A DNA stretch of 63,253 nucleotides, counting the filler, from Dugesia japonica (lineage: Eukaryota), in the NCBI GenBank assembly GCA_001938525.1. It is 6 parts of 6 records of this genome, joined end to end, with 100 filler letters (N's around TTAATTAATTAA, not from the genome) between each part and the next. Parts side by side here need not be neighbours in the genome. Positions count along the whole stretch, not along the records: positions 19,833 to 29,721 come from MQRL01611001.1; positions 29,822 to 43,488 come from MQRL01591460.1; positions 43,589 to 53,472 come from MQRL01610535.1; positions 53,573 to 63,253 come from MQRL01601119.1; 2 more parts are not named here. One strand, written 5' to 3'. The notes under the pieces were generated by a model. It did no database searches, was not told the DNA's origin, and worked only from the letters and a program-made list of their open reading frames with translations. A program made the translations under genes and the position numbers. Shown piece after piece: positions 27,560 through 62,708 of the stretch. Positions within the stretch are counted from its first letter, which is position 1; the number at the start of each line of letters is the position of its first letter.

Positions 27560-27980
27560 AAGAAATGATGCTGCATATCAAATTTTCGGTCCCAGTGGTA
27601 GTGGAAAAACACTGTTTGTATGCAAATTATTGAAATACAATTTACTTAAATCAAAATTCAATAAAATTTACTGGCATTGAGGGACAAATGAAGAGCATGG
27701 ATTGACTCAATCAAGTTTTCTAATATAAAAGTGAAAATTAAAAATGGGTGTGATGATAATTGGAGCAAGAGATTGAAACCAGATGGTATAATTGTTGATG
27801 ATGATCTATACCAAGAAGCAAACAAGGAAAAGGACTTTAACAATTCATTTACAACAACAACAAGACATTGTAATGTGACTGTGATTTTCACTTCTCAAAA
27901 TCTATTTCATCAAGAAGGCGATCATAGAACTCGTAATTTAAATGTACAATGATTTTATTTAAAAATCCAAAAGATAAAAC
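27560..27980 (+). pseudogene. Polinton/Maverick A32/FtsK-like DNA packaging ATPase relic
   Basis: QIFGPSGSGKTLFV (Walker A), GIIVDDDL (Walker B), TRHCNVTVIFTSQNLF, RTRNLNVQ and LFKNPKDK; stops and frameshifts present. Confidence 0.85.
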
Positions 27981-28004
27981 ATGTAAGTACAGAGAAAGTA
28001 TTAA

Positions 28005-28095
28005 ATCCTATTGTATTCAATAGAGTGGGATTTCAAGATCCATTTACAACAACCTATGGAGAGCATTGCTTATTGTGGTTGAAATATCAATATTG
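28005..28095 (+). pseudogene. Polinton adenain-like cysteine protease, C-terminal fragment
   Basis: VFNRVGFQDPFTTTYGEHCLLWLKY resembles the N..Q...S..CG.HC motif; the catalytic Cys position reads Tyr (TAT). Confidence 0.6.
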
Positions 28096-29821
28096 TTATA
28101 TGAAACAAATGTTTTTAATCAAAAATTATGTATTCGCTTGATTTGTAGTTAGTAGGTAGATAGTGGCGCACTGGAACAAAGACTTTTTTCAAACCCCCCC
28201 CGTCAGAAATTTTTTTTTCCAACCGATTTTTTTTGATTTATTTTTTATTTTATTTTATTTTATTATTTTTTTTGAAAAGCAGGTCAAGGTCAAGTTAAGA
28301 AATTGCTATGGCAACGAAATTGATATGGTTGGATGCGCAATGAGACGGTCGACAAGGTGGTGTCTTTAAATGTGTAATCTGATTCATAGGTAAAAGGTTA
28401 TTTAATATTTAAACAACAAAAACGGCATACAGGCGCCATTTTGAATTTTACAAAGTTGTATATTATTGGATAGACAATTAAAAACTGTCTATACATTACA
28501 TAAAGGACTACTATCGTAGAGTGCTTTGTTTTCGCGGCATTTTGAAAAAACTAACAAAGAACCCACTCGTCGAGTGGCCAAAATAAAGATGCTATGAAAA
28601 CGATTTTTTCCAGTATGATGCAAAATTAAATTCTAAGATCAATNNNNNNNNNNNNNNNNNNNNNNNNNNNNNNNNNNNNNNNNNNNNNNNNNNTTTTTTT
28701 GAAAAGCAGGTCAAGGTCAAGTTAAGAAATTGCTATGGCAACGAAATTGATATGGTTGGATGCGCAAAGAGACGGTCGACATGATGGTGTCTTTAAATGT
28801 GTAATCTGATTCATAGGTAAAAGGTTATTTAATATTTAAACAACAAAAACGGCCTACAGGCGCCATTTTGAATTTTACAAAGTTGTATACTATTGGATAG
28901 ACAATTAAAAACTGTCTATACATAACATAAAGGACTACTATCGTAGAGCGCTTTGTTTTCGCAGCATTTTGAAAAAACTAACAAAGAACTCGAGTGGCCA
29001 AAATAAAGATGCTATGAAAACGATTTTTTCCAGTATGATGCAAAATTAAATTCTAAGATCAATGGCGGAAGTTAAAATTTTGTAGGACATAAATTTAAAA
29101 CGTTATTAAGGTTTAAAAATTCTGAAATTTTTTAAAGAGGCGCCAGTTTCAATTTTTTCCATTACTGTTGTTTTGATTTTGGTTTTATTCAATAGAGAAT
29201 TGAAAGTTGTATATAATCATTAAAAATTAAATTTTAAAAATATTGTTTCCTAGCAGTAAAATTAAAAAAACCAGAAATTTAAAATTTGGGNNNNNNNNNN
29301 NNNNNNNNNNNNNNNNNNNNNNNNNNNNNNNNNNNNNNNNNNNNNNNNNNNNATTGCTTAAAGGACTAGTATCGAAAAATGGTTGCTTCATGGCGTAAAT
29401 TGCGATTATAGTGTAGTAGGTAGATTGTTGCGCACTGGAACAAAGACTTTTAAAAATTTAAAATATTGAATACTTTCTCTGTACTTACATGTTTTATCTT
29501 TTAGATTTTTAAATAAAATCATTGTACATTGGATACATGCTATGATGACAAAATTGATATCGTTGGAATCGTAATGAGATGACGGACATAACTGTCATCA
29601 CGGAATTTCAATCCGACGTATTGGTGAGGAGTTTCTAAAGATTTTATAATTTAAATTTTAAAAACCTTGTACAGGTGTGGAATGTTAATATCTTGACTCG
29701 ATTTTGATATTATCTGATAGANNNNNNNNNNNNNNNNNNNNNNNNNNNNNNNNNNNNNNNNNNNNTTAATTAATTAANNNNNNNNNNNNNNNNNNNNNNN
29801 NNNNNNNNNNNNNNNNNNNNN

Positions 29822-29955
29822 TTTTTTTTGTTTTTGATAATAATTCTAATTTTCGACTTTGCCTTCGTCAGGAAGAAGTTAATTCCTGACAAAGACAAAG
29901 TCGAAAATTAGAATCAAGAACAAAAATAAATTTTTATCGAAGCTTTAATTTTAAA
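29822..29955. ncRNA. Palindromic repeat with two opposed minimal hammerhead ribozyme motifs
   Basis: Minus strand 29842-29876: cttc-CTGACGA-a-GGC-aaa-GTC-GAAA-AT-TA-gaatt. The plus-strand copy 29881-29915 has a core substitution (CTGACAA). Confidence 0.6.
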
Positions 29956-30794
29956 GTAATTCTTTATTAGTATTTAATTTAAAGCACCCGAATTTCTGGA
30001 ATTTTTCCAGAATTATCCAGTGAAAAGTACAACCGAGTCCAAGCAACTAATTTCTTTAACATTTCGTCACGAATATAGCAGTATTTTAATGATTTAAATA
30101 TGCCATTTTCACTAAAAGTTTCTTTCAGACATTTTGTCGACAACTAATCTATAACAAACAAAACTCTATAACACAATACATAGGGATCATTATCTGAAGC
30201 AAAATGGTATTGCAGTTGTGAGGTAACTTTTGACTATGGATAAGAGCGATAGCGACACCATTCTTTCGTAACTGACTTTTGTAAGATTAGCATAATTCGA
30301 TATAAAACCAAGGATAAACTGAAACTATTAACTCCAAATTTATACAAGAATTAGTAATAGTGCAAAAGAACATGATAACTCGACTATATAACCAAATAAA
30401 GTACATTCAAAAAAATTCATAATTAATTTGTGTTCAAAAAAAGCTGTTAAAACAAAATTAAAATACTCATTTTAAGATTGATCGTCAATAATAACATCGG
30501 CACAATCTGGGAAAAATCGTGTTTTTTTATTTTCTTTTAACCAACTTTGGAATTCGTAATATCTCAAGTATATCAATATTACAGTACTTTTGACGCTCAT
30601 TACAAAAGCTAGTATTAAAAAGAATAAAAATGTTGACTGGAATAAAATTATCAAAATATAAGATGTCGAAAAAACATCAAAATATTAAGAAATTGATTTA
30701 TAATAAAATGATAAAGCTAAATCTAGAACATTTAATAAATCAAATTTGACAATTGAACATTAAAAATTGAGATTTACAAATATTTATTGACAAA

Positions 30795-31256
30795 TTAATC
30801 AAGCATTCCATCAAGAAAATCTAAAGTAGGACTAATGCTTATAAAATCATTTAAATGAACTCTAGTAATTGTTTTTTTATTAGATAATTGAGCAAAATAT
30901 GCAGCGCCTTTGACAATATCCCGAATAAAATATTCTGTAGCTTTATTAATAAGTGAAATAGAATCATTATTTATAACTCCAATTTCGCTATTTAACTTAA
31001 TTATTGTTTTGATTCGAGATTTAGGGAAAATTAACATTTTCTCTTTGACTTCATTAATATTTTCACTCGTATTAGCTTCAGTATCATTATATTTTTCTTC
31101 TGATTGAGCATCTTGAAAATTAAATTGATTATCTTGATCTAAATTTTCTGAATCTACATTTTTATTTAAATTATCATTTTCAAATAACTGTTCTTCTTTT
31201 TCATATTCTACAGAATCATCACTTAATTGTACATCATCAATGTCAATATCACTCAT
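30795..31256 (-). CDS. POLE4: DNA polymerase epsilon subunit 4 (H2A-like histone fold) with acidic N-terminal extension
   Basis: Single-exon 153-aa ORF with FPKSRIKTIIK..KATEYFIRDIVK..KKTITR..LDFLDGMLD. The C-terminus matches POLE4 FAFLEGTLD better than CHRAC1. Confidence 0.85.
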   Translation of the reverse strand: MSDIDIDDVQLSDDSVEYEKEEQLFENDNLNKNVDSENLDQDNQFNFQDAQSEEKYNDTEANTSENINEVKEKMLIFPKSRIKTIIKLNSEIGVINNDSISLINKATEYFIRDIVKGAAYFAQLSNKKTITRVHLNDFISISPTLDFLDGMLD

Positions 31257-33720
31257 TTTTTACGGTTGAAATCTAAAAATAATCTAAAGACAATTTAAAA
31301 TTTGATTTTATTTAAGATATTATTTAAACAAGTAATTTAATCATCCATAAATCATACATACATAATAAAGTTAAAAAAACAGTTTACTGAATAAAAAATA
31401 TCAAATGTTATGATAATATTATAAACAAATTGGAAATTTCAATATTTTCATTATGCAATTATGCAAGGTAATTGTTCTATTTTAAACTATTGAAAAAACA
31501 ATCGTAGAAATACATAATTGCCAGAATAAAATGTGTTACTTGATAATTTTGATGTTGTATAGTGTGGTGGTAAGAAATATTGATTGATAAATTTGGAGTA
31601 GTACATCAACAAAGTAATAATAATTTGTCTCATAATATTTTTAACAACAGAAAGTTATCATAATATGTCTTATAATAATTTTNNNNNNNNNNNNNNNNNN
31701 NNNNNNNNNNNNNNNNNNNNNNNNNNNNNNNNNNNNNNNNNNNNNNNNNNNNNNNNNNNNNNNNNNNNNNNNNNNNNNNNNNNNNNNNNNNNNNNNNNNN
31801 NNNNNNNNNNNNNNNNNNNNNNNNNNNNNNNNNNNNNNNNNNNNNNNNNNNNNNNNNACCAATTTTTATTGACTTTAATCTAACGTTGAATAATTATATC
31901 AATTTTATTTGTTCAGAAATTTTTAAAACTTTTAAGATTCTTTTTTAAATTTTTTAAGATGATTAAATAATATTTTTATCTAACATAACTCGTAATTATT
32001 AAATATTGAAAGTCATTAATTTGATAATTGTTTTACATCTGTGCATTATCAAGTGAATACTTTAGAATAATATGATTCCCAGTAACGAAATTGAAACGAA
32101 TCAAACCCTACTTAAATTGTCATAAAGTTACCTTAACTGCAATGAGTTGAGAAGTGAGAAACCCCACAGACAACATGTTATAAGTTCTGCCCCGAGGCGT
32201 CTCATTTTTTTGCTCGTATCAAATCATCTTAAAATTCTAAATCAAAATGTTATATTAATAGATATGAAATTAGTGATCTACTTTTAAAAGGTTTAATTTA
32301 GTAATAACCCGAAATAGTTCCCTTTAGGAACCAATTATGTCCTTGAATGAATGGAGTTTCACCACGCCACCACCGAACCAGATGACAGCCTTATATTACT
32401 CTTGGAGTGACTTCAAGATCCTTGGTGGAAAAACCAAGACAAGACACCAAAGATCAGAAACAAGAAATTGTAGAGTTAAAGATAAAATTGCACAAAAAAT
32501 AGAGGAGGTCGTGCGACGTGAACAGGACTAGTGAAGACAAAACTAAGCGCTGAAAGATCTGGTTTATTTTAAATCTCTAAATATACTAATAAAATCATAA
32601 AAAGATATTTGTTTATTCTACAAAATGTCTGTTCGAATCGCGAAACTGACAAGAGAAGAATTGGTAATAGAGAAACAAAATAATCAGGCAGAACTGAAAC
32701 GGCTCAGAAAAAAAGCTTCGAGAGACCAGAGACAAAAATGCAGTGTTGAAAAAGAAAATTACAGGTTTACGAGAATGGGTCGACAAGGAAAACTCATCCT
32801 CATGGCTAACAATCATATGTTCGCTGAAACTGCAAAGAGCTTTGCTGATCAAGAGGCAGTATTAGTCAATGTCTGGACTTTATGGAAAGAGTTTGAGAGC
32901 AAAAAGACGGTAGAAAGCACGGGGTACATCATGACAGGTTTTCGGAAGGAAAACATCAAAACCTCGAAGCCCAAAGAAATAATCAATAAAATAAACCATG
33001 TATCATGATTGACATTAAAAACCTAACACATAAATATGAAATTAATAGAGGAAAAATATGACAAAATATTGAAATGAGAAGCTAATGTACAAAATTTGGG
33101 AAAAAACCCAAAATAGAAAATATAGGCGAAAATGCACGTAAAAGAGATATTAATAGGTTATTTATATAAAACCATAAAACTGAAATATATTACCTGTTAA
33201 AAAGCCTGAAAAATAATACACTTGAAATTACAAACTCAAAACCATATAAAATTTATTAATGAGTGAAAAAGAGGAGATCAATGTCTGTTACTTTAGGAAT
33301 AAAGAACAAGTGAATATCTTTAAGGGCGACAAGCTGAAGAATTGTCAAGATGACAGAATTAAAAATGGAAAATAATTTTTCACAAGTAACTATATAGCGA
33401 ATTTCAAAATATGTTTTTTAGGTTTTAGTTTTGGTGCTTAATAGTTAATAAATTAAAAATAACATGTTAAGAACAATATCTGAGGGCATAATTCGCTTTT
33501 GAAAAGAGGTAATAAATTTTTAAGATAAATAAAAAACTACTAATCTTTTTAATTTCATTAATGTATGTATTATCTCATCTGAGTCAAAAGAATCATCAGT
33601 TAAATTTTTTAGTTTTATTTTCTGAAATTAAATTTTTATTTATAATTTTGATATTTTTAATTTATTAAAAAATTTGTTATAATAAATTTAGTCTTTAATT
33701 TATTATTTAAATTAATTTAG

Positions 33721-36700
33721 ATGGCAGAATATACTGATAAAGAAATTAGAAACATATTAAAAAGTTATGGTGAAGAAATCGGTCCTATAACTGATACAAC
33801 TAGAAATATTTACTTGAAAAAAATTAAAAGCCTTCAAAAAAGCAATGTAATAATATAATTTTCTATTATTAGCTACTTTGATGAATTTTTAATTCAGCCA
33901 ACAAAAAAAGTAAGAAAATCAGAACCTACTTTTGCAAGCAAACCAAATTGGACACCACCTAAAATAAATGAACCACAAACACCAATATCAAATAATAGTC
34001 AATATACAAATTTAGATCGAAATATTAGAAAAGAACCAAATCTAAATCCAACAACTCAACATGTTAATGCTTTTGGAAGTATCAGTGATTCTCCTGTAAC
34101 AAAAAAGTTTACAAATAACAAAGTTCCCGAACCAATTTTCATTAACAAAAGTGATCGTAAACCTTTCAGATATTCTTTAGTGAGTACAGATAGACAAATT
34201 AATAATGAAGATAATTACTGTAAAGAATTCAAAGGAAGAGTAATTTCACCAATTTCATTGTCAAAAAGCTACGAAAATAATTATCCACCGCCGGAACAAG
34301 TTACAAGTTTTATAAATCAATATCCCACTGAAAGAAATTTTCCTCAAATAAATGGAAATAATAAAAAAAATTGGTATAATGGTTCTTTGAATACAATATC
34401 CAATTATTTCGTAAAACATAAACAACGTGGGGATCTTATGGATATTTCAGACGGAGATTTATCCGATAATGAAAGTCCTTTCATGACAAGGTTAAGAAAA
34501 AAATATTGGAAAAGAAATGGTTCGTTAANTTTGTTGTTTTTTTCAATAATAAATTAAATTAATATTCAAATATGAAAATTCACTTTTATTAAATTTAAGA
34601 ATTAAGACGATAAAAATTATTAAAAATTTCTTCTTTAATTATTTTAAAAGATTTTTTCTTAATTTTGAAAAATTTATTTTTACTTTAAAGTTTTATGTAG
34701 CAAATAATTTTTCAATATTGTCTAGAAATAATATCATGTGATTCAGACGTACTTTTAGTTGGTCTCAATTGCTGTCTTTTCATTAGAAAATTAGGATCCG
34801 TTTATTTTAAAAATTCATTAAAATATTAAAATTTTTTTAATAACGAAATTTTTTTTGAAAATTTGCATAAACATTTTAGGAGATTTTGCGTACCGAGAGA
34901 GAGATAGAGGGTGGTTGGATTTAGGAGATTTTGCGTACAGAGAGAGAGAGAGAAGGTGGTTGGATTGAGGAGATTTTGCGTACCGAGAGAGAGAGAGGGT
35001 GGTTGGATTTAGAAGATTTTGCGTACGGAGAGAGAGGTGGTTGGATTGAGGAGATTTTGTATACCGAGAGAGATAGTGTGGTTGGATTTAGAAGATTTTG
35101 CGTACCGAGAGAGAGATAGAGGGTGGTTGGATTTAGGAGATTTTGCGTACAGAGAGAGAAAAGGTGGTTGGATTGAGGAGATTTTGCGTACAGAGAAAGA
35201 GAAAGTGGTTGGATTGAGGAGATTTTGCGTACAGAGAAAGAGAAGGTGGTTGGATTGAGGAGATTTTGCGTACAGAGAAAGAGAAGGTGGTTGGATTGAG
35301 GAGATTTTGCGTACCGAGAGAGAGAGAGGGTGATTGGATTTAGGGGATTTTGCGTACAGAGAGAGATAGAGGGTGGTTGTATTTAGGAGATCTTGTATAT
35401 CGAGAGAGAGAGATAGAGGGTGGTTGTATTTAGGAGATCTTGTATATCGAGAGAGAGAGATAGAGGGTGGTTGTATTTAGGAGATCTTGTATATCGAGAG
35501 AGAGATAGAGGGTGGTTGGATTTAGAAGATTTTGCGTACCGAGAGAGAGAAGATGGTTGGATTTAAGAGATTTAGTGTACCGAGATAGAGAAGGTGGTTG
35601 GATTTAGGAGATTTTGCGTACAGATAGTTGGATAGAGGGTTGTTGAATTGAGGAGATTTGGCGTACCGAGAGAGAGAGAGAGATAGAGGGTTGTTGGATT
35701 TAGGAGATTTAGCGTACCGAGATAGAGAAGGTGGTTGGATTTAGGAGATTTTGCGTATCTAAAGGAANNNNNNNNNNNNNNNNNNNNNNNNNNNNNNNNN
35801 NNNNNNNNNNNNNNNNNNNNNNNNNNNNNNNNNNNNNNNNNNNNNNNNNNNNNNNNNNNNNTAAAGTTTCATTCAGATTTAAATGAGTGAGCCTTCAAAA
35901 AACTAATCGCCACGACCGGAACTTATTTTTGTTCGGAACTCAAGGCTCAACCGTCACATTAAATTATTTCTTTTACGTTAAGTTTTCTTTAACATTTTAT
36001 CAAATCTAGAGGAAACTCGAAAATATAAATAGTGCGTCGTGAAACATTTCAATGTGTGTGTCTGTGTGTGTCGTGATTCAATACAGATTGGATAACGCCT
36101 TGTTAACCAATGCTTTGTTTTAAATATGAATTACGGGCCATCCATACATTACGTACACAAAACACTCATATTTTAATACCACTTGCCTCTCTGTTGCATC
36201 AGGTAGATATTTTGGACCCCCAGTTTGTGTANNNNNNNNNNNNNNNNNNNNNNNNNNNNNNNNNNNNNNNNNNNNNNNNNNNNNNNNNNNNNNNNNNNNN
36301 NNNNNNNNNNNNNNNNNNNNNNNNNNNNNTTTGTGTACGCACAAATGAGCTTCTTCTCTACTCGAATCTTGTTTGCAAAACACTCATATTTTAATACCAC
36401 TTGTCTCTCTGTTGCATCAGGTAGATATTTTGGACCCCCAGTTTGTGTACGCACAAATGAGCTTCTTATCTACTCGAATCTTGCTTGCAAAACACTCATA
36501 TTTTAATACCACCTGCCTCTCTGTTGCATCAGGTAGATATTTTGGACCCCCAGTTTGTGTACGCACAAATGAGCTTCTTCTCTACTCGAATCTTACGAAT
36601 ATTACGATTAATTTCGCTTCAGTGGTAATTTATAGGTTAATGAACATTTACTAGCTAAAACATTGAGTTGTAATAATAAAATTGTGATTTAAGTTAATAC

Positions 36701-43488: not shown

Positions 43489-43772
43489 NNNNNNNNNNNN
43501 NNNNNNNNNNNNNNNNNNNNNNNNNNNNNNNNTTAATTAATTAANNNNNNNNNNNNNNNNNNNNNNNNNNNNNNNNNNNNNNNNNNNNTTTAATTTGCTT
43601 GATAAAATTTAGAAAATTCGCAACACGAATGCAAAACATTTACAAATCAAGTACAAAATATACCAATTTAAATTTAGAAATTTAAATTTCATAGAATTTA
43701 TATACTACGTTATGGTTTTTTATTATGCATATATATAATGCATTTCATTATTATTTCTTGAAATTTTTAAAT

Positions 43773-46373: not shown

Positions 46374-46556
46374 TAAATGTTATATTAATAAATGTTTTAT
46401 TGGATAATTGTTTTCTTTTTTTAATTATTTATTTATTTTTTATTTATTTAATAAATACGTTTTTTTATAATACTAAGTAAACAAAAAAACAATATTTTAA
46501 ATAAATTAATTTATGATAACTAATTTCATTAACATACATTTTAAGTGGATACATAC

Positions 46557-48104: not shown

Positions 48105-49314
48105 CTTACTTCATAATGTATTCCAATGTTGCAAAGATATTATTTGCAATAAAATTGTTCGGTTGTCACTATTTTGAATTTCACTTTCAAATACACCATA
48201 AATTATGACATATTTATGGGGTATTTAAAGCTTTAGAAACTTTGATATCCAACCGCAAATTTCCTTGTTTAAGTAATTGACTCTGATTAATATCAAAATC
48301 TGGAGTTTTTTCAAAATTTAGTTTTGAATTCTTCACGTGTAATTCCGAAATTCCTATCCAAATTTTTATCCAAATATTCCATATTTTAAACTATAGATTG
48401 CATATATGTTGTACTATAATTATCGTTTTCAAAATCCAGAGTATATGCTTCTCGATAATCAATGTTCTTTTAAATAAATTATGGAAGTAGCATTGAGATG
48501 AACAAAGTTTGAACTAGACTTTTTATAGCTCCAACATATTGATCTTCACTTTGAAATGTGACTAGATTAAAGTTTTGTAGCTGACAATCACCAAATATTT
48601 GTTCCTTATAAAATAATGTACTACCTTTACTAATTACAAAGGCAACAATTTCTTTCTTTTTATTGGATAAACTGCATTTTGTTTTTTTAATCCTATTTGA
48701 TGACCTGCGTCTAGAAATTGATATTTTGGCTCATCAGCAGTTGATTCCAAACACATTATTGAAGATGATCTAGTCATTTGAGTTTGTATATTAACACCTG
48801 TAATGAGATATTTAGGCTGATCCATAAAATTAAGTTGCAATGAACCACAAAAAGACAATGCTTAATATATTTTAATATACTTTTGCTATCTGTTTCTGTT
48901 CCATACCCTATTGTTGTAAGACAAATATTCTTACTATCTACATTATAATTGAAAATAGTTTCAATCATAGCCTTCGGAATATATGTATTGCTTCGATTTG
49001 GACATTATTAACTGAAAGAATGACAGTTCTGAACAGATTATGAACCATTTAGTTGGTGTGTGCTACATCATCAGAAGATTCAGCCAAACATTTTCAAGTA
49101 TTATCAACTACTTTACTTGTACATACAATAAAGTATCATTCAAATCCAAATATTCTGTTTATGATTCGTTTATAAAAAAGAATAATTCACTTTTTTGATC
49201 AACAATTGAATTCATAGGAGACACATCTTTAAATGCACCATACTCAATAACGGCTTGAGGTGATGGGCCATAAAAATTATATAATTTAGTATTCGATACT
49301 AAGTTTATCGTCAT
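48105..49314 (-). pseudogene. Polinton/Maverick major capsid protein (PY, double jelly-roll) relic, near full length
   Basis: MTINLVSNTKLYNFYGPSPQAVIEYGAFKDVSPMNSI..EYLDLNDTLLYVQVKV..HNLFRTV..YIPKAMIETIFNY..GSLQLNFMDQPKYLITGVNI..TPD..KQGNLRLDIK..IIYGVFESEI follows the Polinton MCP consensus from end to end; several stops and frameshifts. Confidence 0.85.
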
Positions 49315-50998: not shown

Positions 50999-52641
50999 AA
51001 TAAAAATCCAAATTATACAATTAATAACACATTGAATGTGGAATGCACTATAAATATTAGTTTCTATGGATTTGAAACTATGGTGCAACCATCAATAATA
51101 GATGAGCAATAGCAATTCAAAGTTAATCCTCATGATTATTTTTATTGGTGTTGCTATGCTGTACTATTTCAACACTGCATACAATCAAAAAATAATTTTC
51201 CAGTGCAATACAATGTGTCAAGGAAATGAAAATTTTATCTAAATATTTGTAACTAATAAATATCATTTACAAAAAATCAAATTTTAACAGTAAAATAAAA
51301 ATATTCACATTAATAATATATATATTCATATGATAAACTAACCTATGTTACGTCATATCTTTCATTAATATTCGGCATTTAAAAATTANNNNNNNNNNNN
51401 NNNNNNNNNNNNNNNNNNNNNNNNNNNNNNNNNNNNNNNNNNNNNNNNNNNNCCGAATTTCTTAACGAAAATATTTTAATAAATAATTTAGTTAACTTCA
51501 TAAAAGAAAATTTTAAATTTTAATATTTGAAATTAATTAATTATTATTATTAATTAATTTAAATTAATGACGTAGTTCAATAAAATAATTTTTGCTGCAT
51601 TAATTTTAAAATTTTAAATAATTTTAAATAAATAATTTTTGGAATAATTTTCAAATAAACGTTTCAATAAATAATTTTTAAAAATAGTTTAATCTGAATT
51701 TAAATTATATTAAAATCTTTTTGAATGAAATATTTCGAAAATTTATTGTTTTTGATTATTAAATAATTTTTTAATTAACTTCGGCCAGAATTAAATAAAA
51801 ATGTTTAGCTTGTTTTAAAATTTGTTTAAAAAACAAATTTATAGTTTGTGTTTTTGTTTTGTCTTGAATAAATATTGGAATGAAAATTGTTAATTTTTTA
51901 AATGCAAAGATGAATGTTACAGATTCATCTAACAACTATAATTCAATAACAAACTGATCATCAATAAGATTTATTTTATAAATAAACGATTTATAATTAA
52001 TTATTAACAATTAAAGGTTACAATAAATTACACAATTTAAATTTAAAACTTAAAAACATTTCTTTACTAAAATGGCATATCGATTACTAAATTAAATTGC
52101 GGTTTCAACAAAGTTTTTGACAAAAGTTATTAAAAATGATTAAACAAATTTCAAAATTTTTCAACTTTTAAATACACTAATGTTATGAAACGTTTCACAA
52201 AAATGGTTAAAAAAAATTTACCATTTCAATAAAAACTAAATTCACATTATGACGAAATCAAGACAAAATTACAATTAAATCTTTTACAATCACACTTTTA
52301 ATAATTTAACAAAAATTGACCAAACTTTACAATTAAAACGATAATAATTTAATTCTTTTAAATTTAACACAACAATAAAAGTTGTACATAAGTTATGTAC
52401 ATAAAAGAAATTATATGTAAAAACCCAATCAAAAAATTATGTGATTCAATTTATCTCCCACATTAATAATAATAATTTTGCTTCGACGAATAATTAGAAT
52501 TATGATACTATTAATATCCTTGTTATCTATCATAATTGAAAAATAACTAAGTGCTTAGAATATTTATTAAATNNNNNNNNNNNNNNNNNNNNNNNNNNNN
52601 NNNNNNNNNNNNNNNNNNNNNNNNNNNNNNNNNNNNNNNNN

Positions 52642-52920
52642 AAACGTTTTTCATCTTTTTGACCATTCTACTCTTTTGGTTTCAAACCATTTAGAAACTT
52701 GATTTCTACTTGATGTGCTGATACGTACCTCACTATCTGGTATGGCTCTTCATATAGCAAACCGTTTTTCCTTTATCAGCGTGGTTTTACTCGGATGAAT
52801 ACCCAATCTCCCTCTTTAAAGTATATTTTTCCTCGCTTATCTTTCTCGAAATTTTACATTTTCTGCGCCGCCTTCTCCAAATTCTGTCGCACTACATCTT
52901 TTCTGTTTGTCCTTCCACTG
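52642..52920 (-). mobile_element. Gypsy integrase C-terminal (GPY/F) relic
   Basis: VRQNLEKAAQKM*..FKEGDWVFIRV..LLYEEPYQIVRYVS. Confidence 0.6.
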
Positions 52921-54624
52921 AATTGCTAGTTTTTGGAATTCAATAAATAGAAATATTCAATAATAACTTAAACAATGAATTATTAAAGTTCATTATATCA
53001 CTTTCCATTATTATTGCTCGCATTTTATGAACATGTCTTTTTATGTTCAACTTTAAATTGGTTGTTTTTTTATTGTGCACTTTTATTCCACACTATTTTG
53101 ATTTTCGAATATATCTTTCCGATGTTTGTCATTTAAAACTTGCCCCTTTATTAGTATAGGTAAATTCTATATTTTAATTATTTGTAATAAAATTTCGTCT
53201 ATTGATTTATGAAACTAACAGAGGTAAAAAACTTGTGAAGAATTGAAATTTACGTATACTTTCTTATGAAACAAATACGAAGAATCAATTATACAGTAAA
53301 CTAAAGATAAGTTCAATTAATTCTAACGACATTAATAGTTGATAAAACCATTCATTTATTCCAACAAAGATAAACCACCACATACAAATCAAGCGATCTA
53401 TAGTTCAAAATTTACGTCTAAACCAGGGGTTTGCAACTTTGTTTAGCTGCGGATCAAAGTAAAAAACGGTGANNNNNNNNNNNNNNNNNNNNNNNNNNNN
53501 NNNNNNNNNNNNNNNNTTAATTAATTAANNNNNNNNNNNNNNNNNNNNNNNNNNNNNNNNNNNNNNNNNNNNTATTATTATTATTATTATAATTATTATT
53601 ATTATTGGGACAGAACCCAACAAATTAATTTATAACATAAGTTAATAACGTGAATTACCAAACAAAATCGTGAAAACACGAATAAGCTACTTTATTATAA
53701 GAAATTAGACAGGAAACAATTGTTTTAAATATAAATAAGCAGGTTGTATTATATAGAAAACCTGATATCGGAAAAACAAAACATTTAATATGTGTCAAAC
53801 TTCATATTCCAATAAAATAGATGAGTTATGAGAAAACAAATAATAAAGAAATTGTTAAATTAATTACGGAAGGAATTACCAAAAAATGTGATAAATTAAA
53901 ACAATTTGTAAAAAAATGGAATTGGTTGTGAAATAAACTCAACAAATTACAACGAGATACTTAAAAGGAGTATAAATACTAGCGAAAAAAATATTAAATT
54001 AAACATTCAGAACAAAAGTAGACAATAAAAGAACATTTTTTGGCCAAAGACGGGAAATTATCAATCAAAGACTCTCAGTAATCGTGCAACGAAAGCATAA
54101 TCATTTTTAAGATCTAATTTCGTAGGAATTGGAAGCAGGAGAACACAAATATTACCCCAAAACCCTGTAAAACGGAAGTTCCAGGAAAGTAAAAAGTGTT
54201 TTCCGATGTAATCAATGCTAACCAATAAGTTGGCATAAACAGTTCTTACACAATCGATAAAGAAATCACTCCAAGAGAAATAAATATAAAACCAAGAAAG
54301 CACACTTCACAAAACTAAATAATCTGTAGATGTATGTTCATTGCAAAATGAAATGAAAATTATGATTTTTATGTGTATTTCGCTTTAAAAAAGTAAGCTC
54401 AAAAAAGAAGGAATGCTGTGTGTATATGATTTTGAATGTGTGTTTTTAAGTTGAATTATTAATTTGTTACCATCAACAGACAAAGTGAGACTATTAAGTT
54501 TGGGTTATCTTTCGAAAATCTGATAGTATTAATTTATGTTAGTAACTTTTAAAAATCATGTAAAATGGTTTATCATCAATAAATAAGTAATTTTCCGAAA
54601 TATAACCGCCCTTGCAGCTGTTAA

Positions 54625-55140
54625 GTTGGTAGTAAGCTCGTAAGCGTATTACTGATTGCTGTGGTGTAACGGCAAAGGAGAACGTAGTTATGTTGGTAGT
54701 AAGCTCGTAAGAGTAGTACTAACTGCTGCGTTGAAAACGGGATTGGAAAACGTAGTTTACTAAGTATATGTACGATTGATGGGCGGTCAATCACGTTATG
54801 GATAGTAATGTTTACCAGGCGGTAAATATTTTAAGTAGGTGCTAATAATGCGGATTGTTAGCTTGGATGAGCATGAACTCAAACATACTCAGAGGTAGTC
54901 GAACGTGATAAATATGCTCGGATAGATTTCCGCATGTTCAGATATGATTGAACATGCTTATTAGCTCACCTGAACTCAGATTTACTCAAATCAACTCAAA
55001 TGTGCATCGATATGCTCAAACAAGATAAAAATACTCAGATATATTTCAACATGTTCAGATATGATTGAACATGTTAATTATGATTATGATAACTCAGATC
55101 TACTCAAACGTACTCATAAATGCTAAATAGACTCAGTTAT
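54625..55140. repeat. Degenerate tandem repeats (~66 bp x2 at 54625-54757; aactcagat/catgttcagatatgattgaacatg units)
   Basis: Directly visible duplicated blocks. Confidence 0.65.
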
Positions 55141-55578
55141 CATATTATCAGATAGTTTTTGATAGACTAAATATTTAAACATCATCGTCCTCAATATATT
55201 TGATTACTTTCAGATATATTCAAATATGGTCATATACTCTCAAACAAATGGTAAATGATACGAACACATAAATGGGTTTCCAAACGATAAATGAAAAATG
55301 AAAAACTATTATTCAGTGCTCTCAAATAAATCTATAATGATATTATGCTCTCAGCCAAGATCACAGAAAACCTTATGCACTCCAATAGAACCAGATAAAT
55401 GAAATCACATTATCATCACTAGAACTGACCCTTTTTTATGTATCCTGTGTCATAGTTAATGTAATAAATGTTTATATCGTTATTTCAGAATACAGGATTT
55501 TCATCATTTCAACATTTGATTTTCATCATTTTAGAGCTTCTGTCGCTCACAGTATTTATGTTTTAATGTGGTATTTTA

Positions 55579-57086
55579 TTAAAGTATTATGAAAACTATT
55601 ACATCAAATTATCAAATTAAGTTAAAATTATTACAGTGAAGTTAAAATTAATTATTTTTTCCTAAATAACTACATTTAAGAATAAAAAATAAGTAATCTG
55701 TTTTATAATTCATTAAAATATTATTTGGCATGAAATTGACATGATTATCATTAATTTCGTGGTTTATCACAAAAGTCTGTTTCAATTCTTGATTCATTTA
55801 TTATTTATAATGTTAGATGAGTTTGGAATGATTATTTTAAATACTTTTTTAATTTACAAATGTAATATTATTATAATAACTATTAATAGACACTTAAATG
55901 GTAATATTTATAGGAAACACATGAAAAATAATAGAAAACTAAGTAAAAGTACTATAAATCTATGTAAAACACATTAAAACATTAATAGAATACCATCATA
56001 AATCCATATAAATCTATCATAAACCCCCGAAGAAATTTATCTGAACTCCATAAACCCCTAAACATTCAAAGAAATGCTTAAAAATTTTAAGAGTTAATAG
56101 ACATTTCATGAATTTTATTGGGATTTGATAGGAAATTTATTGATTTATAGTGGTTTTCTTTTATGAAATTATGGGATTTATTGTTGTTAATAAGGGTTTT
56201 ATAATGGTATTTTATAAGAGTTTTATATGTGTTATAATTAGTTTAACATTGGTTTATATGGACATTTTAGTGGTTTTGTTGGATTTCCGTTTCAAGGGTT
56301 TATAAAGATATGAGCACTAATATCTGAATTTTGAGATCTTTTTGAAATTTTAAGAATTTTATGGTGATTTCTTGAATTTAGGTTATTTATTTTTGTTTTA
56401 TTGTGGTATTTTATATATGTTTTTTATAATTTTATTATCGTTTAAACATTATTTTATAGTGTCTTTATACGGGTTTTAAGCATTTCTTGGAATGTTTAGG
56501 GGTTTATGGAGTTCAGATAAATTTCTTCGGGGGTTTATGATAGATTTATAGGGATTTATGATGGTATTCTATTAATGTTTTAATGTGTTTTACATGGATT
56601 TATAGTACTTTTACTTAGTTTTCTATTATTTTCTATGGGTTTCCTATAATTATTCTCATTTAAGTGTTTAATAATAGTTATTATAATAATATTACACTTT
56701 TAAATTAAAATAGTATTTAAAATAATCAAAAAAAAATTAAATAATAATTAAAGTAATTATATCAAGAATATTAAAGATACTGATAATAAAATATTGGTAC
56801 AGTAATTATTATTTTTTGAAAATTAATTTAATTTACTTTATTTTTTTAGAACAACAATAGTGTAAGGAATAATAAATGTTTTTTGATGAATCAAGAATTA
56901 AAACAGACTTTTGTGATAAACTATGTCAATTTCATGCAAAATAATAATTTAATGAATTACAAAACAGATTACTTATTTTTTATTCTTAAATGTAGTTATT
57001 TTGGAAAAAATAATTAATTTTAACTTCACTGTAATAATTTTAACTTAATTTGATAATTTGATGTAATAATTTTCATAATACTTTAA
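55579..57086. repeat. ~1.5-kb foldback (long inverted repeat) element
   Basis: 55579 to about 56090 is the reverse complement of about 56470-57086, with indels (e.g. aaacccccgaagaaatttatctgaactccataaaccc / gggtttatggagttcagataaatttcttcgggggttt). Confidence 0.9.
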
Positions 57087-57799
57087 CTTTTTTAAAAGTT
57101 TATTTGAATTTATTTAATAACTACATTTAATAATACATTTAATAATTATGATTTTGATTTAATTGCTAAGACCATTATTTAATTTGTTAATTTAAATTTA
57201 ATTATACTAATAAATTTCAGGTTTAATAAGTATTGATTTTATAATTTAAATAAATAAGATTTATATTTAACTGATTTATTAAGACTTGTTAATGTTATTT
57301 TTCTATTATGCTATTTTATATAAGTAGGTATCAGATTAACAAGTTTCTTTATATAGTTAATTAAATTATATTAAGAATATTGATGTTTGTTTAATCGCAC
57401 CAATTTAATTAAGAAGTATATATGTGAGTGTATTATTAAATTTGGGCTATAAAAAATACAAATAATGTTTCGAATCGTTACATCAATCAAAAGCAATAAT
57501 ATAAGTGCATAATATAGATAATAGATGCTTTATATATAGCATACTTGCAGTGCTGAATTATGATAACGTTTACGATCCTTGAGATTGCCGAAAAATATTT
57601 AACAGTTTTCTAAATGAATTAGCATATGATAGGCTCATCAATATTCCAGACTTTGACAAGAAAAATAATTCATCGATTAGAGTGTTAAATATAAAAAAAC
57701 TATTGATAAGAACAAAAGACCTTAATGGTATAGTATATTCCCATATAAATTTGCAACTTCGTATAAAATGCTTATAAATCAAACAGAGTTACCAGAACA

Positions 57800-59330
57800 A
57801 TGGACAGAAATAACAAGTGGAGAATATGAAATTGCAAAATTGTCATGGATAGAGTTGAGAATTAATAAGTGTTTTGGAATACATGGTGTCCCTAAATCAT
57901 TCTAAATATCTACTTGTTGGCTGATAATTTTTAAACATTTCGTAAAAAGCGCTTGAAGAACATGGATTGGAGCCGCTACAATTTGTTTAATTACCAGGAT
58001 TGCTCTCAAGTCAATGGATAGACCAATAGAATTACTCCAAGATATTGAAATGCAACATTTATTTGAGTTAGGAATTTGTGGAGGAATGTCTTTTGTGAAT
58101 AAACGTTATTTTCATGCAGATAAGATTACCTCATTGCTTTACATTGACATTAATTACCTATATAGTTGAGCCTTAATGCAGCCTTTGCTATATAGCAACT
58201 TTGATTTTATATTAGAAGAACATATTAAAGAAACCTAACAGAAGATGTTCGCCGATATCAATAATGAGATTGGATACATGCTGAAAATTGATCTTGAACT
58301 ACCTATGGAGTATCGTGATAGATTAGATCATTTACCTTTGTCTCCAGGACACAAATGTCCACGTGGATCAAAGGTCAAGAATTTGCTGATGAAACATGAA
58401 TATAAACGGCATTAAATCGTATATTGACGATTACTGGAACTGTATATAAAGCTTGAGACTTTTGTGATGGCAGTGTATCGAATAATAAAGTTTAAACAAA
58501 CGGAAGTATTTACCAATTATATTAATGCAAATTCTACAAGAAGAACAAAATCAAAGTCTCACTTTGAGAAAGATTTCTACAAACTAATATATAATGCGCT
58601 ATATGATAAGACAGAGGAGAATTTAAAGAATCGCATGGATCTCCGGCTATGTAATAACGAGAAGAAATTTGTAACTTATACCAGTAAAGTTACATTTAAG
58701 AAAATAATAGATATCAAAGAAGGACACAAGGCTCTATTGCTAGAAAAAGATACTATATGTTTAGACAGGCCAATTATATTGGTCAAGTGGTTCTAGATTA
58801 GAATAAATTAAGGATGTATAGGCTCTAATATGAAGAGTTGGAAAGAAATCGTCAACGATTTCATTACAAAATTGATATTATTGCTGGAGATACGAATAGT
58901 TTTTTCTTATCATGTACTGTGGTGGATAAAAACCAATTCTTATCTCATATTAAATCGGATGGTCTCTTGGATACAAGCAATTTTCCAAAATGTGATCCCC
59001 TCTATTTCAGTGATATGACCAGAAGAATTGGATGGTTTAAAGATCAAGGAGAAGGTGAAGATTATACTGGATGGGTATTCCTAAGGCATAAATGTTATAG
59101 TTTAAAGAAAGCAGATGCTACTATAACAATGAAGGCAAAATGAATAAGTTTAAATCAAACATATCCATTGAAATTATTTAAATGCACACAAAAAAGATCA
59201 AGACGGAGATGAAGAACTAGACAAAGTTATGCAGACTAGTTTCCAATCAATAAATCATCAGGTTTATACAATATAGAGTATGAAACGCAAATTTTCTTGC
59301 ATGAATGATTTGCCCTATTAGAGCAAAAGA
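57800..59330 (+). pseudogene. Polinton protein-primed DNA polymerase B (pPolB) relic
   Basis: HGLEPLQFV*LPGL, ELLQDIEMQHLFELGICGGMSFVNKRY, LYIDINYLYS*ALMQPL, KDFYKLIYNALYDKTEEN, IAGDTNSF, GWFKDQ, LRHKCYS and KAK. These are decayed GIRGG, DxNNLYG, KLxxNxxFGK and DTDS motifs. Confidence 0.9.
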
Positions 59331-59699
59331 AATACTAGTATCGCATACAAATTTAATATTTAAATAATACATATTTAATTGTTGTTTTAAGGACAACAGC
59401 ATGTCAAAGAAAACAAAGAAGACGATGATTTTAGTTTAAATGATGAAATAAATGTTGTTTTACTAATTTGTTGTACTAAAGGATTCTACCTTGAACATTT
59501 GGAGGAAGTTATAAACAATTTTGAAAAATATATTGTAGATTGTTTAGAGATTAAAGAAATTATCTAAAATAAATTAAATGTCAGATAAATTTGAGATACT
59601 CATCGTTGAATTCAAAACTCTAGACGTTTTCATTTAAAGTTTATTATAAAATAATAACATTAAATATACATTTGTTTTTTTAACAAATTAAATCGAAAT

Positions 59700-60972
59700 A
59701 CTACCATGATAAAAAAATTCCCGGTAAACTGAATTTTAAAATGCAACAAACTATTTTTTCAAGACAATTTTAATTGTCACCTTTGAAGTAGTCTCCATTA
59801 ACCTTAATGCATCTATGTCTGCGTGTAATCCAATTTTCAAATGCCTTCTGGAACTCTTTCTTTAGTTTACCCAACTATGCATCCTTTGCTTTTTGTTTGA
59901 TTGCTTCAGTGGTATCAAAAGGTTTTCCTCGAATTGATTGTTTAGCCTATTAAATAGGAAGAAATCGCAAACAGCCATATCTGGTNAATTTGAAGCTTGT
60001 TGGATGCTTTTTATATTGAACGTTTGCAATAAATCTCGAATAACTATTGAATTATGAACTGGTACAATGTCATTGTGTAAAATCCAGGAATTTGCTCTTC
60101 ACAAATCTTTTCTTTTCAAACGAACAGCTTCATGCAATCGTCTCATAACACCTAGATAATACTCCTTGTTGACTGTTTGACCTTCCGGAATAAATTTATG
60201 GTGTACAACTCCATTGTAATCGATGGAAACGGTCAGCATGATCTTTCTGTTAGACTGACCTTTTTTTGCGGAGACTGCCAATGACTTGATTGATGTTTTG
60301 TTTGAGTTTCATACTCAAACACTCACGTATTATCACCATAAATTATACGTTTTATAAATGTTTCATCAGAATCAACGTTAGAGAGCATGTCCTTTGAAAT
60401 TTCAACACGACTTAATTTTTGAAAAATGTTCAATTCACATGGAATAAGTCTTGCAGTAACGCGCTTCAATCCCAAATCCTCATGCGAAATGGTTTGAACT
60501 GTTCCAAATGATATTTAACAATCTCTCTGATACTCAATTTCCAATTTTTCATTAACAATTTCTATGATATTTTTTTCTTTCTTTGAAGTTGATGGTCTTC
60601 CAGATCTAGGATTATCTGTGACAGTCTCACGACCCTCTAAAATCGCGCATACCCTTCATTAGTTGTTGATTTTGATAAAAAATTGTTACCATAGCACTTC
60701 TGTATCATTTTCAAGGTATTGGGACGTTTAATATCGTTTTTGACGCAGAATTTAATGCATATTCTTTGTTCAATTATATCATCCATCATACACATAGGAA
60801 ATAACATTAAAATTAATTTACATTAATTACTGTAGCTTTTACGATCTAATGAGCAGAAATGTGGTGATGTAGTAAAACAAATATGTATCAACTATTAAAA
60901 ATAAGAATTACATCTATAGCATTTGTGTGTGAATTTTAAATTTGGTTGACCGGGTATTTTTTGATCATAGAT
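59700..60972 (-). mobile_element. Full-length decayed mariner element with terminal inverted repeats
   Basis: TIRs ccatgataaaaaaattcccggt / accgggtattttttgatcatag. Transposase starts near 60789 MMDDIIEQRICIKFCVKN, then LIPCEL, IIYGDNT*V, KIMLTV..GQTVNKEYYLGVMRRL and PDMAVCDFFLF. Confidence 0.9.
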
Positions 60973-61038
60973 GTTATGTGTACATTGATTATAGATAGAT
61001 TAAATTTTATTTATTAAATTTTATTTAGACGTATTTAT

Positions 61039-61442
61039 TCATCTGCTAACGAATTCAAGAAATTTGTACTTGTTGACCAATTTTAAATTTTGGTTTTGGC
61101 TTATTATTGATGAAATACTGCCTGAAATTATTATCATTATATGTAACATCAACTGGTTTTTCCCTCGCATACCTTGGTGTTCAGAATTATATAAATAAAG
61201 CATTTTTGGTAAAACAATTATCCATCTTTTGTTGCCTTGTTTTGTAAAATATTTGTTTAATCGAGTGCGCAAAGTTCGATTAAATCGCTCAACTAAAGTG
61301 GCGTTGTATTGAGAAAATATTGAATAGTGTAATATTACAAGTTATTTTAATAATGATTTGACTTGTGTATTGTAGAATTCTTTACCTAAATCAGTTTGAA
61401 TAACTCTTGGCTATACATTTCTGAGCATATCAGTTAAAGCCA
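61039..61442 (-). pseudogene. Polinton retroviral-like (DDE) integrase relic
   Basis: PRVIQTDLGKEFYN..HYSIFSQYNATLVERFNRTLRTRLNKYFTKQGNKRWIIVLPKMLYLYNSEH, the typical Polinton integrase pattern. Confidence 0.85.
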
Positions 61443-61446
61443 AAAT

Positions 61447-62595
61447 TAGGTGTATCGGAAAATAATGCGGATTTTTTAAAATCTATTTTTTATCATATAT
61501 GATTAAATAAATCTTATTGTTTATGTATTGTTTTTTTTTGAATATTCATTGATTATTATGATAAACATTTAAATATTATTAAAGTGTTAATATTTTTAGT
61601 ATTTTTAGATTCAAACATAATAAAGTTTATTTCTGGAAAAGAACATTTGCGGGTAGTGACGATCAGCTATTTTATTGTAGAAAAAACTGCTGTAAAAACA
61701 TACCGCCTGTTTTGCAATGTCTATGGCGAAGATGCACCATCTCAAGTTACCAGCGAGCGTTGGTTTAACCGCTTCAAAATGATGATTTCAATATGAGAGA
61801 CAATTAACGTTCAGATCTTACTTCTACATTTGATGACCAACAAATAGAATTTATAATATATGAAGATACATGTCAAACTCAAAAACAACTAGCCATGCAA
61901 CTAGATGCTGGCCAGCAAGCAGTTTTTGATCGCTTAAAAGAAATGGACAAACTTTTAAAGAAAGGCATATGGGTATAGATAGTCATAGACAACTGTAAAA
62001 CATAAAAGTAGTTTGAGAAATGTTGCTGCGACGACACAAACGAAAATCTTTCTTACATAAAATTTTGAAAGGAGTTGAGAAGTGAATTTATTATGAAAAT
62101 CCCAAACGCAAGAAATTGTGGATTGATCTGGGTAAAGATTCAAAACAGACTGCAAAACAAAATTGTTTTGGAAAGAAAACAATGCTCTGCGTCTGGTGGG
62201 ATCAAAAGAGTGGGGTATATTATGAGCTTCTAAAACAAGGCGAAACTAATAATTCTAATGGATATCAAAAACAAATAATGGAGCTAAACTAATGTATACC
62301 AAATGTCTAGAATGGGCCAAAAGATTTGGTAAAGTATTTTTGCTCCATGAAAACGCATCGTCACATACTTCAAAAGGAGTAAAAAACATGTTAAAAGATC
62401 TAGCCTGGAAAGTACTCACCCACTCGCCATACTCACCAGATTTTGGTCCTTCTTTATTTTATCTATTCAAATCAATGACACATGAATTTGCTGAGCAGCA
62501 CTTCAAAACCTACGATGATTTTTAAAAAAAAGTCTCTTAATGGTTCGCCTCGAAATTCAATGTTAGAAATAATAAAAACTTTGATTACCTCAATT
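61447..62595 (+). mobile_element. Decayed Mos1-like mariner inserted into the integrase region
   Basis: Left end TTAGGTGTATCGGAAAATAATGCGG; KEHLR..VYGEDAPSQVTSERWFNRFK, KTMLCVWWDQK..YYELLKQGET, LLHENASSH and HSPYSPDFGPS. Confidence 0.85.
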
Positions 62596-62708
62596 GTAAT
62601 CTATTTTCGCTAAGTGGGGCACATGGTGCAGGGCGCTCACATCTACCTACTTTTATTCAATGGAAATAAAAATACAAAATAGATAAACATCAATAAATAT
62701 TAATTACC

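Follow-up and report, generated by a model that had tools for sequence, protein, structure and literature searches.

Polintons, or Mavericks, are the elements that Starrett et al. 2021 (PMC8502044) named adintoviruses, and according to the same paper degraded copies of them are widespread in animal germlines. In vertebrates, where 96% of Maverick loci are degraded, a module of integrase, minor capsid, PW, major capsid protein (MCP) and protease genes converges on the gene encoding protein-primed DNA polymerase B (pPolB), an arrangement shared by the intact relatives described below (Barreat and Katzourakis 2021, PMC8097293). In planarians, Polintons/Mavericks are reported to be abundant and piRNA-repressed in Schmidtea, and expanded in Dugesia (PMC8532177, PMC10558129, bioRxiv 10.64898/2025.12.11.693146). 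The portions of these three accounts drawn on here deal with the elements as transposons and give no account of capsid genes, and we found no description of capsid genes of planarian Polintons in the open-access literature. One supplement of PMC8502044 contains none of the terms 'Schmidtea', 'Dugesia', 'Girardia', 'planaria' and 'TBP'.

Here, we analyzed a stretch of 63,253 nucleotides from Dugesia japonica (the window), which contains relics of five Polinton genes. In common with adintoviruses (PMC8502044), the relics comprise pPolB, an rve integrase, an FtsK/A32 ATPase, an adenain protease and a predicted double jelly-roll hexon, in integrated form; in contrast to the adintoviruses of that paper, the window holds relics only, on separate scaffolds, and no penton or accessory gene survives in it. 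We propose that the relics are very probably three separate broken remains of one capsid-encoding Polinton/Maverick lineage inserted in the host chromosomes. They belong to a known type of element, of which they are an unremarkable fossil, and do not represent a new system.

Results

Five gene relics on three scaffolds

The window is composed of six unrelated scaffolds, all shorter than 14 kb, that are joined by linkers of the form N44-TTAATTAATTAA-N44, three of which are seen between the relic-bearing scaffolds (Table 1). Because these linkers separate the relic scaffolds, the 35-kb span originally assigned to the Polinton finding is an artefact of how the window was built; the three independent segments of about 10 kb in the preliminary description are real, and correspond to scaffolds of 9.9, 9.9 and 9.7 kb. 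One scaffold carries the ATPase and the tail of the protease, one the major capsid gene, and one pPolB facing the integrase core. There are gaps in the ATPase/protease scaffold, as well as a tandem duplication that is likely false (28267-28989).

Relics were searched for by tblastn of the window with seven intact natural relatives as queries, using the reversed window as a decoy. All five genes were matched with E-values of 2e-8 to 9e-98, while the best decoy E-values for the seven queries were 0.79-3.1. The five relics are thus located, beyond chance, at or near the positions first proposed for them, but two starts were off: the ATPase, placed at 27560-27980, begins about 50 bp earlier, and pPolB, placed at 57800-59330, begins about 330 bp earlier with an N-terminal piece at 57433-57759. 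The identity of the relics depends on the intact relatives, because a direct Pfam scan of 12 single-frame read-throughs returned no E-value below 0.025, and none of the 12 passed the curated cut-off; the same was true of three short relic pieces (0/3). Profile searches of the window for the penton-position gene, PW, TBP and two more genes conserved in the relatives returned no relic. As initially judged, every copy in the window is dead, with stops, frameshifts, deletions of several kb and mariner insertions distributed across the relics, which likely produce no protein.

Table 1. Positions of gene relics, candidate element end, inserted transposons and linkers in the window
Feature	Position	Strand	Evidence or context
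Packaging ATPase (A32/FtsK-type) relic	27510..27984	+	tblastn E 2e-38 to L006 ATPase
Adenain-like maturation protease, C-terminal third	27992..28105	+	tblastn E 2e-8 and 6e-8; profile E 3e-6
AGTAG-type end motif (candidate terminus of a Polinton inserted separately)	28150..28170	+	pattern search
Artificial linker	29722..29821	.	end of ATPase/protease scaffold
Artificial linker	43489..43588	.	start of capsid scaffold
Near full-length major capsid protein relic	48147..49314	-	tblastn E 9e-98 (48147-49302), residues 2-406 of 406
Artificial linker	53473..53572	.	start of pPolB/integrase scaffold
Protein-primed DNA polymerase B relic	57433..59348	+	tblastn E 2e-91 to L002 PolB (57472-59348)
Broken Tc1/mariner between pPolB and integrase	59655..60897	-	Pfam Transposase_1 E 1e-9; 24-nt imperfect inverted arms
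rve integrase core relic	61144..61455	-	tblastn E 3e-29 (61159-61440), residues 125-219 of 358
Second broken mariner, 5' side of integrase relic	61585..62689	+	Pfam HTH_48 E 3e-13, Transposase_1 E 3e-20; inverted arms

The major capsid protein

The MCP relic is broken into seven pieces by six frame changes, with seven stops and a gap of about 15 codons. It is matched by 118 of 893 candidates at E<=0.01, and shares 62% pooled identity over 419 columns with the intact relative P0001. The predicted structure of P0001 has a pLDDT of 92, and Foldseek against the PDB places the capsids of iridovirus, PBCV-1, Sputnik and mavirus on top (E to 1e-16, TM 0.5-0.67); in its top-match cluster in the Atlas, 30% of the members carry the DJR-like family PF21738. 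The double jelly-roll anticipated in the preliminary description is therefore predicted, on this intact relative instead of the relic, and the predicted fold supports a double jelly-roll capsid for the relic lineage. Pfam searches with seven intact capsid relatives and a PDB sequence search with the capsid profile gave no match, and none of 80 pattern matches from an IMG/VR scan with the capsid alignment was confirmed. The PW and protease genes that flank MCP in the relatives were not detected beside the relic in scans of its flanks.

DNA polymerase and integrase

The pPolB relic consists of four main pieces with frame changes and 12 stops, and motif C is substituted. About 330 codons are absent (profile positions 325-648), corresponding to the start of the exonuclease and an endonuclease-VII insert in the relatives. 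Pfam identifies Endonuclease_7 in 31 and PF03175 in 10 of 43 PolB relatives, and the L002 PolB matches Endonuclease_7 only. A nuclease domain within pPolB, present in the intact relatives and deleted in the window copy, is also known from the pPolB2 Polintons of nematodes and oomycetes, which have an HNH insert; pPolB1 and pPolB2 are both assigned there to Group 2 (Jeong et al., 10.1101/2023.08.22.554363). The pPolB locus is matched by 159 of 161 PolB relatives, none of which matches elsewhere in the window. For the intact L002 PolB, the predicted fold (pLDDT 88.5) aligns with phi29 polymerase at a Z-score of 19.5 (rmsd 3.1, 532 aligned), versus 11.2 for the top-ranking B-family polymerase apart from phi29, and adintovirus/MELD PolBs are near the top in BFVD, at identities of only 16-24%. 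The PDB sequence search with the PolB profile gave weak matches only (phi29, E 0.09). With PF03175 matches in the minority and Endonuclease_7 in the majority, the relatives' PolB leans tentatively to the divergent 'Beta' adintovirus class.

The integrase relic has two stops and lacks its N- and C-terminal parts. Although it has no Pfam match by itself, it is 55-62% identical to the integrases of the closest capsid-linked loci (E to 5e-32), which match Pfam rve (PF00665) with an E-value of 1e-12. The integrase and pPolB relics are convergent on the same scaffold, 1.8 kb apart, where 1.24 kb of the interval is mariner; the same convergence is found in loci L002, L028 and L062.

ATPase, protease and element ends

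The ATPase relic covers residues 2-162 of 222 with one stop and two frame changes, and keeps the Walker A region; intact ATPase relatives match Pfam Pox_A32 above the curated cut-off (E 1.8e-6 and 4.8e-6). The protease match (27992-28084) corresponds to residues 83-113 of 117, a fragment of only ~31 residues, for which the decoys reached E-values of 3.1 (tblastn) and 6.0 (profile), and the E-value against L028, one of the closest relatives, is 0.15. Four of five protease relatives tested match Pfam Peptidase_C5 (E 3e-6 to 4e-3). What we take to be the position of the catalytic cysteine is substituted in the relic. From order and strand, we infer that ATPase and protease derive from one insertion, and likewise pPolB and integrase; the ATPase/protease junction would then be a deletion junction at which about 5 kb has been lost.

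The end motif downstream of the protease has three more copies, at 16348, 19667 and 29414, and all four are on the plus strand. Four matches compare with none expected, but the pattern was built from these same matches. The motif resembles the (AGT)2 end motif of vertebrate Mavericks (PMC8097293). Neither an inverted partner for the four ends nor a pair of TIRs or a 6-bp target duplication was found in the window; five long relative loci contain no long TIR pair, and the end pattern is absent from all 80 relative loci, the majority of which stop short of an element end.

The ATPase/protease junction (27941-28006) recurs as an inverted 66-bp copy (97%) at 29465..29530 on the minus strand, just past the 29414 end motif. 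A junction that occurs twice, the second time right behind an element end, favours a reading in which some deletion derivatives, notably the ATPase-protease fusion, were non-autonomous Polintons that moved in trans after the deletion, and did not decay in place. We consider this unlikely, though compatible with the main reading, given that the duplicate spans only 66 bp, that the scaffold is gapped and bears the likely false duplication, and that the ends are unpaired.

Intact relatives and a common origin

The intact relatives of the relics are loci in metagenome assemblies. All five genes occur together in 3 of 80 relative loci, and three or more in 18. The initial assignment of the gene set to Polintons/Mavericks of the adintovirus type stands, as the five relics match genes that are linked in fixed order in these loci. 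In the intact relatives, unlike in vertebrate Mavericks (PMC8097293), the ATPase gene is not with pPolB but shares the strand of the capsid gene, upstream of the integrase, and several relatives have a TBP-like gene. A gene of ~340 aa occupies the place expected for the minor capsid (penton); its Atlas matches are unnamed viral and eukaryote clusters.

The three scaffolds are unlinked, and a true gypsy RT/integrase relic (26000-27340) directly adjoins the ATPase, as might be seen if the relics came from unrelated element classes (e.g., a Ginger/gypsy integrase, a plasmid-type PolB and a virophage/PLV ATPase) and resembled a set only through the random joining of scaffolds. Three observations make this very unlikely: (i) the top-scoring counterparts of the remaining four relics, with identities of 38-63%, lie in loci that were fetched by the capsid alone; (ii) nine multi-gene loci fall in a similar order when ranked against the ATPase, the integrase or the MCP relic (Spearman 0.90-0.95, a descriptive correlation since the loci are related); and (iii) on both two-gene scaffolds, order and strand are as in the relatives.

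Copy number, genome setting and expression

Depth was evaluated for the capsid gene only, using contigs of two public runs from two studies over 3.5 kb at the capsid relic, which are matched by 5473 and 7565 contigs. Summed contig depth over the capsid, which does not equal copy number, is 1.4e3-2.8e5 compared with 9.5-14 at single copy, i.e., from 100-fold to more than 10,000-fold the single-copy value. Because contigs pile on the capsid relic so far above single-copy depth, the family is likely high-copy, with hundreds of copies or more, and the high genomic load previously suggested is likely as regards this gene. Younger, more uniform copies are likely present elsewhere in the genome. Over 48630-49626, contigs with 0-8 differing letters have a depth of 7.5-22, similar to that of the neighbouring caveolin exon (9.5 and 14). 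The exact copy of the capsid relic is thus at single-copy depth amid a deep pile of related contigs, as a chromosomal copy would be.

Since the nearest intact relatives come from metagenome assemblies, the relics could in principle be contaminant contigs that derive from a free virus or from a symbiont and were assembled along with those of the animal. This is extremely unlikely: the genes are in pieces, with mariners interrupting them; the GC content of the relic scaffolds (25-28%) is like that of the other scaffolds of the window; a caveolin exon is present on the capsid scaffold and a TANC/ANKRD50-like gene on a pPolB-free scaffold; and the single-copy depth of the exact capsid copy recurs in the runs of both studies. 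Matches to the TANC/ANKRD50-like gene reach only 32-39%, with spider and newt as the named sources.

The earlier description of the genome as compact is not supported, as the contig sets of the two runs in which this DNA is found add up to 933 and 782 million letters. Planarian genomes are AT-rich and about 0.8-2 Gb in size, in agreement with the 25% GC and contig totals of 780-930 Mb found here.

RNA reads on the capsid relic were rejected as a sign of capsid expression on account of their low identity and presence on both strands. In one RNA set (X12), 594 of 768 such reads are less than 90% alike and only three reach 99% or more; reads are about equal on the two strands, whereas those on the caveolin exon are strictly one-stranded. 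The reads fit other copies that are read both ways, or traces of genomic DNA from a high-copy repeat. Among the data sets listed as containing the capsid stretch there is no RNA set, which does not bear on expression.

Discussion

In the ancestor, the genes for ATPase, integrase, a putative minor capsid, PW, major capsid and protease would have followed one another in this order, opposite to pPolB and facing it. By the mechanisms described in the Polinton literature, it may have copied itself by protein-primed replication and inserted by means of its rve integrase, and it could have packaged its own DNA with a double jelly-roll capsid, ATPase and protease. The copies likely entered the chromosomes of this animal, whose DNA is AT-rich and rich in repeats, a long time ago. 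Decay after insertion likely removed about 5 kb from the ATPase-protease interval, over 3 kb from that of integrase and pPolB, and about 1 kb inside pPolB, and likely added two mariner insertions with many stops and frameshifts.

In animal genomes, dead fragments are the usual state of Mavericks, and the relics alone matter little. What they show is that the abundant Polinton family of this genome belongs to the virus-like type that encodes a capsid, within a clade of fixed gene order whose intact members have so far come only from metagenome contigs. It is conceivable, though we regard it as quite improbable, that the high-copy, recently spread Polinton family of this planarian host, from a clade whose intact members often have their own TBP, retains complete copies whose capsid genes are expressed and which give rise to particles in normal animals. 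If so, a laboratory animal would offer a direct view of whether animal Polintons make virions. Planarian Polintons are reported as piRNA targets that are de-silenced during differentiation (PMC8532177), which makes this family a sensible place to seek natural Polinton particles.

Five broken genes on three scaffolds

The window consists of six scaffolds of 9.2–13.7 kb, each with a GC content of 25–28%, which are separated by five linkers (N44-TTAATTAATTAA-N44) and do not form a single locus. The motifs named in the preliminary description are visible on six-frame translation, and a Pfam scan of 12 single-frame read-throughs gave no significant match. With a single capsid frame as query, 118 of 893 candidate proteins were recovered, mostly of 402–431 residues (best E 8e-54); a single polymerase frame recovered 11 of 1540. 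Relic limits were set by tblastn of seven intact-relative queries back onto the window, with the reversed window as decoy. The ATPase, protease, capsid, pPolB and integrase relics described previously were all recovered on three of the six scaffolds, with E values of 9e-98 to 2e-8 compared with best values of only 0.79–3.1 for the decoy. As had also been claimed, all copies in the window are dead, every one of the five genes being broken by stops, frame changes, truncation or missing parts.

Coordinates of features in the window and in metagenomic loci carrying related elements (L-numbers)
Feature	Position	Strand	Remarks
S3	19833-29721		scaffold with ATPase and protease relics
S5	43589-53472		scaffold with capsid relic
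S6	53573-63253		scaffold with pPolB and integrase relics
ATPase relic	27510-27984	+	E 2e-38; 1 stop, 2 frame changes, truncated
Protease relic	27992-28084	+	E 2e-8; last third only
Capsid relic	48147-49302	-	E 9e-98; residues 2-406, 7 pieces, 7 stops
pPolB relic	57472-59348	+	E 2e-91; 12 stops in 4 main pieces, ~330 codons missing
Integrase relic	61159-61440	-	E 3e-29; core only, 2 stops
AGTAG-type motif	16348	+	
AGTAG-type motif	19667	+	
AGTAG-type motif	28150	+	
AGTAG-type motif	29414	+	
Tandem array	34875-35757		41-bp unit, 20 copies
Tandem array	38702-39098		33-bp unit, 12 copies
Caveolin exon	50562-50894		Pfam E 9e-29
TANC/ANKRD50-like NACHT-ankyrin exon	22830-24683		host gene, 617 codons
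Histone-fold protein	30795-31259		host gene
Dynamin-family middle domain	14531-14905		host gene
TBP-like gene	L002:2175-2621		
TBP-like gene	L028:2420-2869		
TBP-like gene	L062:12141-12749		
TBP-like gene	L037:6466-6966		

Gene identity from intact relatives

The folds reported here are models of relatives, to which the relics are tied by 38–63% identity. The fold of P0001, an intact relative sharing 62% pooled identity with the capsid relic, was predicted from 114 sequences (pLDDT 92); its top PDB matches were the double jelly-roll capsids of iridovirus, PBCV-1, EhV-201, Sputnik and mavirus (E to 1e-16, TM 0.5–0.67), the architecture anticipated beforehand, and BFVD returned the same capsid class. 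For the intact pPolB of L002, modeled from 43 sequences (pLDDT 88.5), phi29 polymerase scored best (Z 19.5; next family member, 11.2), and adintovirus, MELD and bidnavirus-like polymerases headed the BFVD matches. With regard to the Alpha or Beta adintovirus class, PF03175 was matched by 10 of the 43 polymerase relatives and Endonuclease_7 by 31. The relatives' ATPase, integrase and protease match Pox_A32, rve (one with chromo) and Peptidase_C5, respectively. The five hallmark genes and the pPolB–integrase linkage of Polintons/Mavericks are all present as relics. No penton relic was found in the window with profiles from relatives.

Linkage, order and internal deletion

A metagenome scan by capsid alignment alone yielded 80 loci. 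The five relics are the only places in the window that ORFs of these loci match significantly. The complete set of five genes is found in three of the loci, and at least three of the genes in 18. When scored against the ATPase, integrase and capsid relics, nine loci with several of the genes fall in much the same rank order (Spearman 0.90–0.95, descriptive only, the loci being kin). Unrelated elements could also leave relics on separate scaffolds, but given this shared set of loci we regard such an origin as very improbable.

The usual order in relatives is (TBP) – ATPase – small ORF – integrase – putative minor capsid – PW – MCP – protease, facing pPolB. In S3, ATPase and protease abut on the same strand, whereas corresponding points in relatives lie ~5 kb apart. 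In S6, pPolB and integrase are convergent, as in relatives, with a gap of 1.8 kb, 1.24 kb of it mariner, compared with 3.7–5 kb in L002 and L028; S5 carries the capsid relic without other genes of this set. We infer three insertions, each shrunk by internal deletion. That some of these were mobile non-autonomous deletion derivatives is rather unlikely, and would be compatible with descent from a working Polinton.

Intact relatives encode a TBP-like protein of ~150 residues (Pfam TBP, E 2e-17 and 5e-18), with 10 such ORFs in nine of the 80 loci; no relic of this gene was found in the window. L028 contains two putative minor-capsid family genes in tandem (5616–7687; one in other loci) and, close to its left end (at 225–719 and 794–957), a 165-residue ORF and two long hairpins; by eye, we take this ORF to resemble a ubiquitin-conjugating enzyme. 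One of the figure legends in PMC8502044 includes the label TBP.

Element ends and nearby repeats

Four copies of a motif beginning AGTAG, all on the plus strand, were found with a pattern derived from these same matches. No inverted partner for them was found in the window, and no target duplication is readable. The copy at 28150 would start a new insertion behind the protease and not close the ATPase/protease copy. Related non-coding repeat arrays lie in inverted orientation on two scaffolds (46900–47745; 16769–16932 and 19552–19596), with an E2F-like site near 47550; they are likely sub-terminal Polinton sequence, directed away from the capsid relic. The AGTAG motif resembles the (AGT)2 Maverick end (PMC8097293).

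Immediately upstream of the pPolB relic is a 1.5-kb foldback (55579–57086; arms ~220 and 255 bp, 89–95% complementary), probably a separate non-autonomous element. A broken gypsy-type reverse transcriptase and integrase relic (26000–27340; Pfam RVT_1, rve) adjoins the ATPase upstream, and a second integrase-tail-like piece was noted by eye at 52700–52900. A palindromic MITE-like repeat family occurs on four scaffolds (11140–11294, 12717–12887, 21723–21797, 29822–29963 and 37170–37431).

Copy load and transcripts

Part of the capsid stretch was found in ten runs from five studies, nine of which runs share one species label. The window holds animal-type host genes (caveolin and the TANC/ANKRD50-like gene). 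Contamination as the source of the relic scaffolds is very improbable. The 25% GC, the size of the contig sets and the mariner and gypsy load make a planarian host likely; a search with the TANC/ANKRD50-like gene gave matches of 32–39% identity, named as spider and newt. Contigs of two runs were aligned to 47880–51380. The caveolin exon has single contig cover (depth 9.5 and 14), and near-identical contigs reach a comparable depth over the capsid copy, which is therefore a single chromosomal locus. A further 5473 and 7565 contigs pile up in this interval, with a summed depth over the capsid of 1.4e3–2.8e5, which is no copy number. Even if overlapping contigs inflate this depth ~30-fold, as we estimate, its peaks would correspond to several hundred copies. 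The high genomic load proposed earlier is thus likely for the capsid gene, its pile-up being far above single-copy depth; the term 'compact' does not suit a genome with contig sets that add up to 933 and 782 million letters. In run X1, at least 94% of the depth falls on one other letter at 19 of the 21 capsid places among the best-supported rows, which makes the window copy a divergent member of an otherwise more uniform family.

RNA reads on the capsid relic are mostly <90% alike and lie on both strands; they therefore do not demonstrate expression of the capsid. In the caveolin exon, both RNA runs deviate at ~13 listed places, where the two contig sets mostly match the window; the differences may reflect another strain or a paralogue. 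Just beyond the capsid 3′ end, 47880–48113 has very high summed depth (0.8–2.5e5) and gave no match to protease or other profiles from relatives.

Discussion

Polintons are replicated by a protein-primed polymerase, inserted by an rve integrase, and encode a capsid, packaging ATPase and maturation protease (PMC8502044, PMC11161782, PMC6431247). The relics very probably descend from such a working element, which would have combined protein-primed replication and rve integration with its own capsid, packaging ATPase and maturation protease, and would have spread widely in the genome before the copies in the window decayed without function.

Among vertebrate Mavericks, 96% of loci are degraded (PMC8097293), and degraded copies are thus the norm. 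Schmidtea Polintons are reported as piRNA targets (PMC8532177, PMC10558129) and Polintons as expanded in Dugesia (10.64898/2025.12.11.693146); we found no description of capsid genes of Schmidtea or Dugesia Polintons in our searches of the open-access literature. That whole copies form particles in a laboratory animal seems improbable. The relics are real, correctly identified as Polinton, and ordinary.
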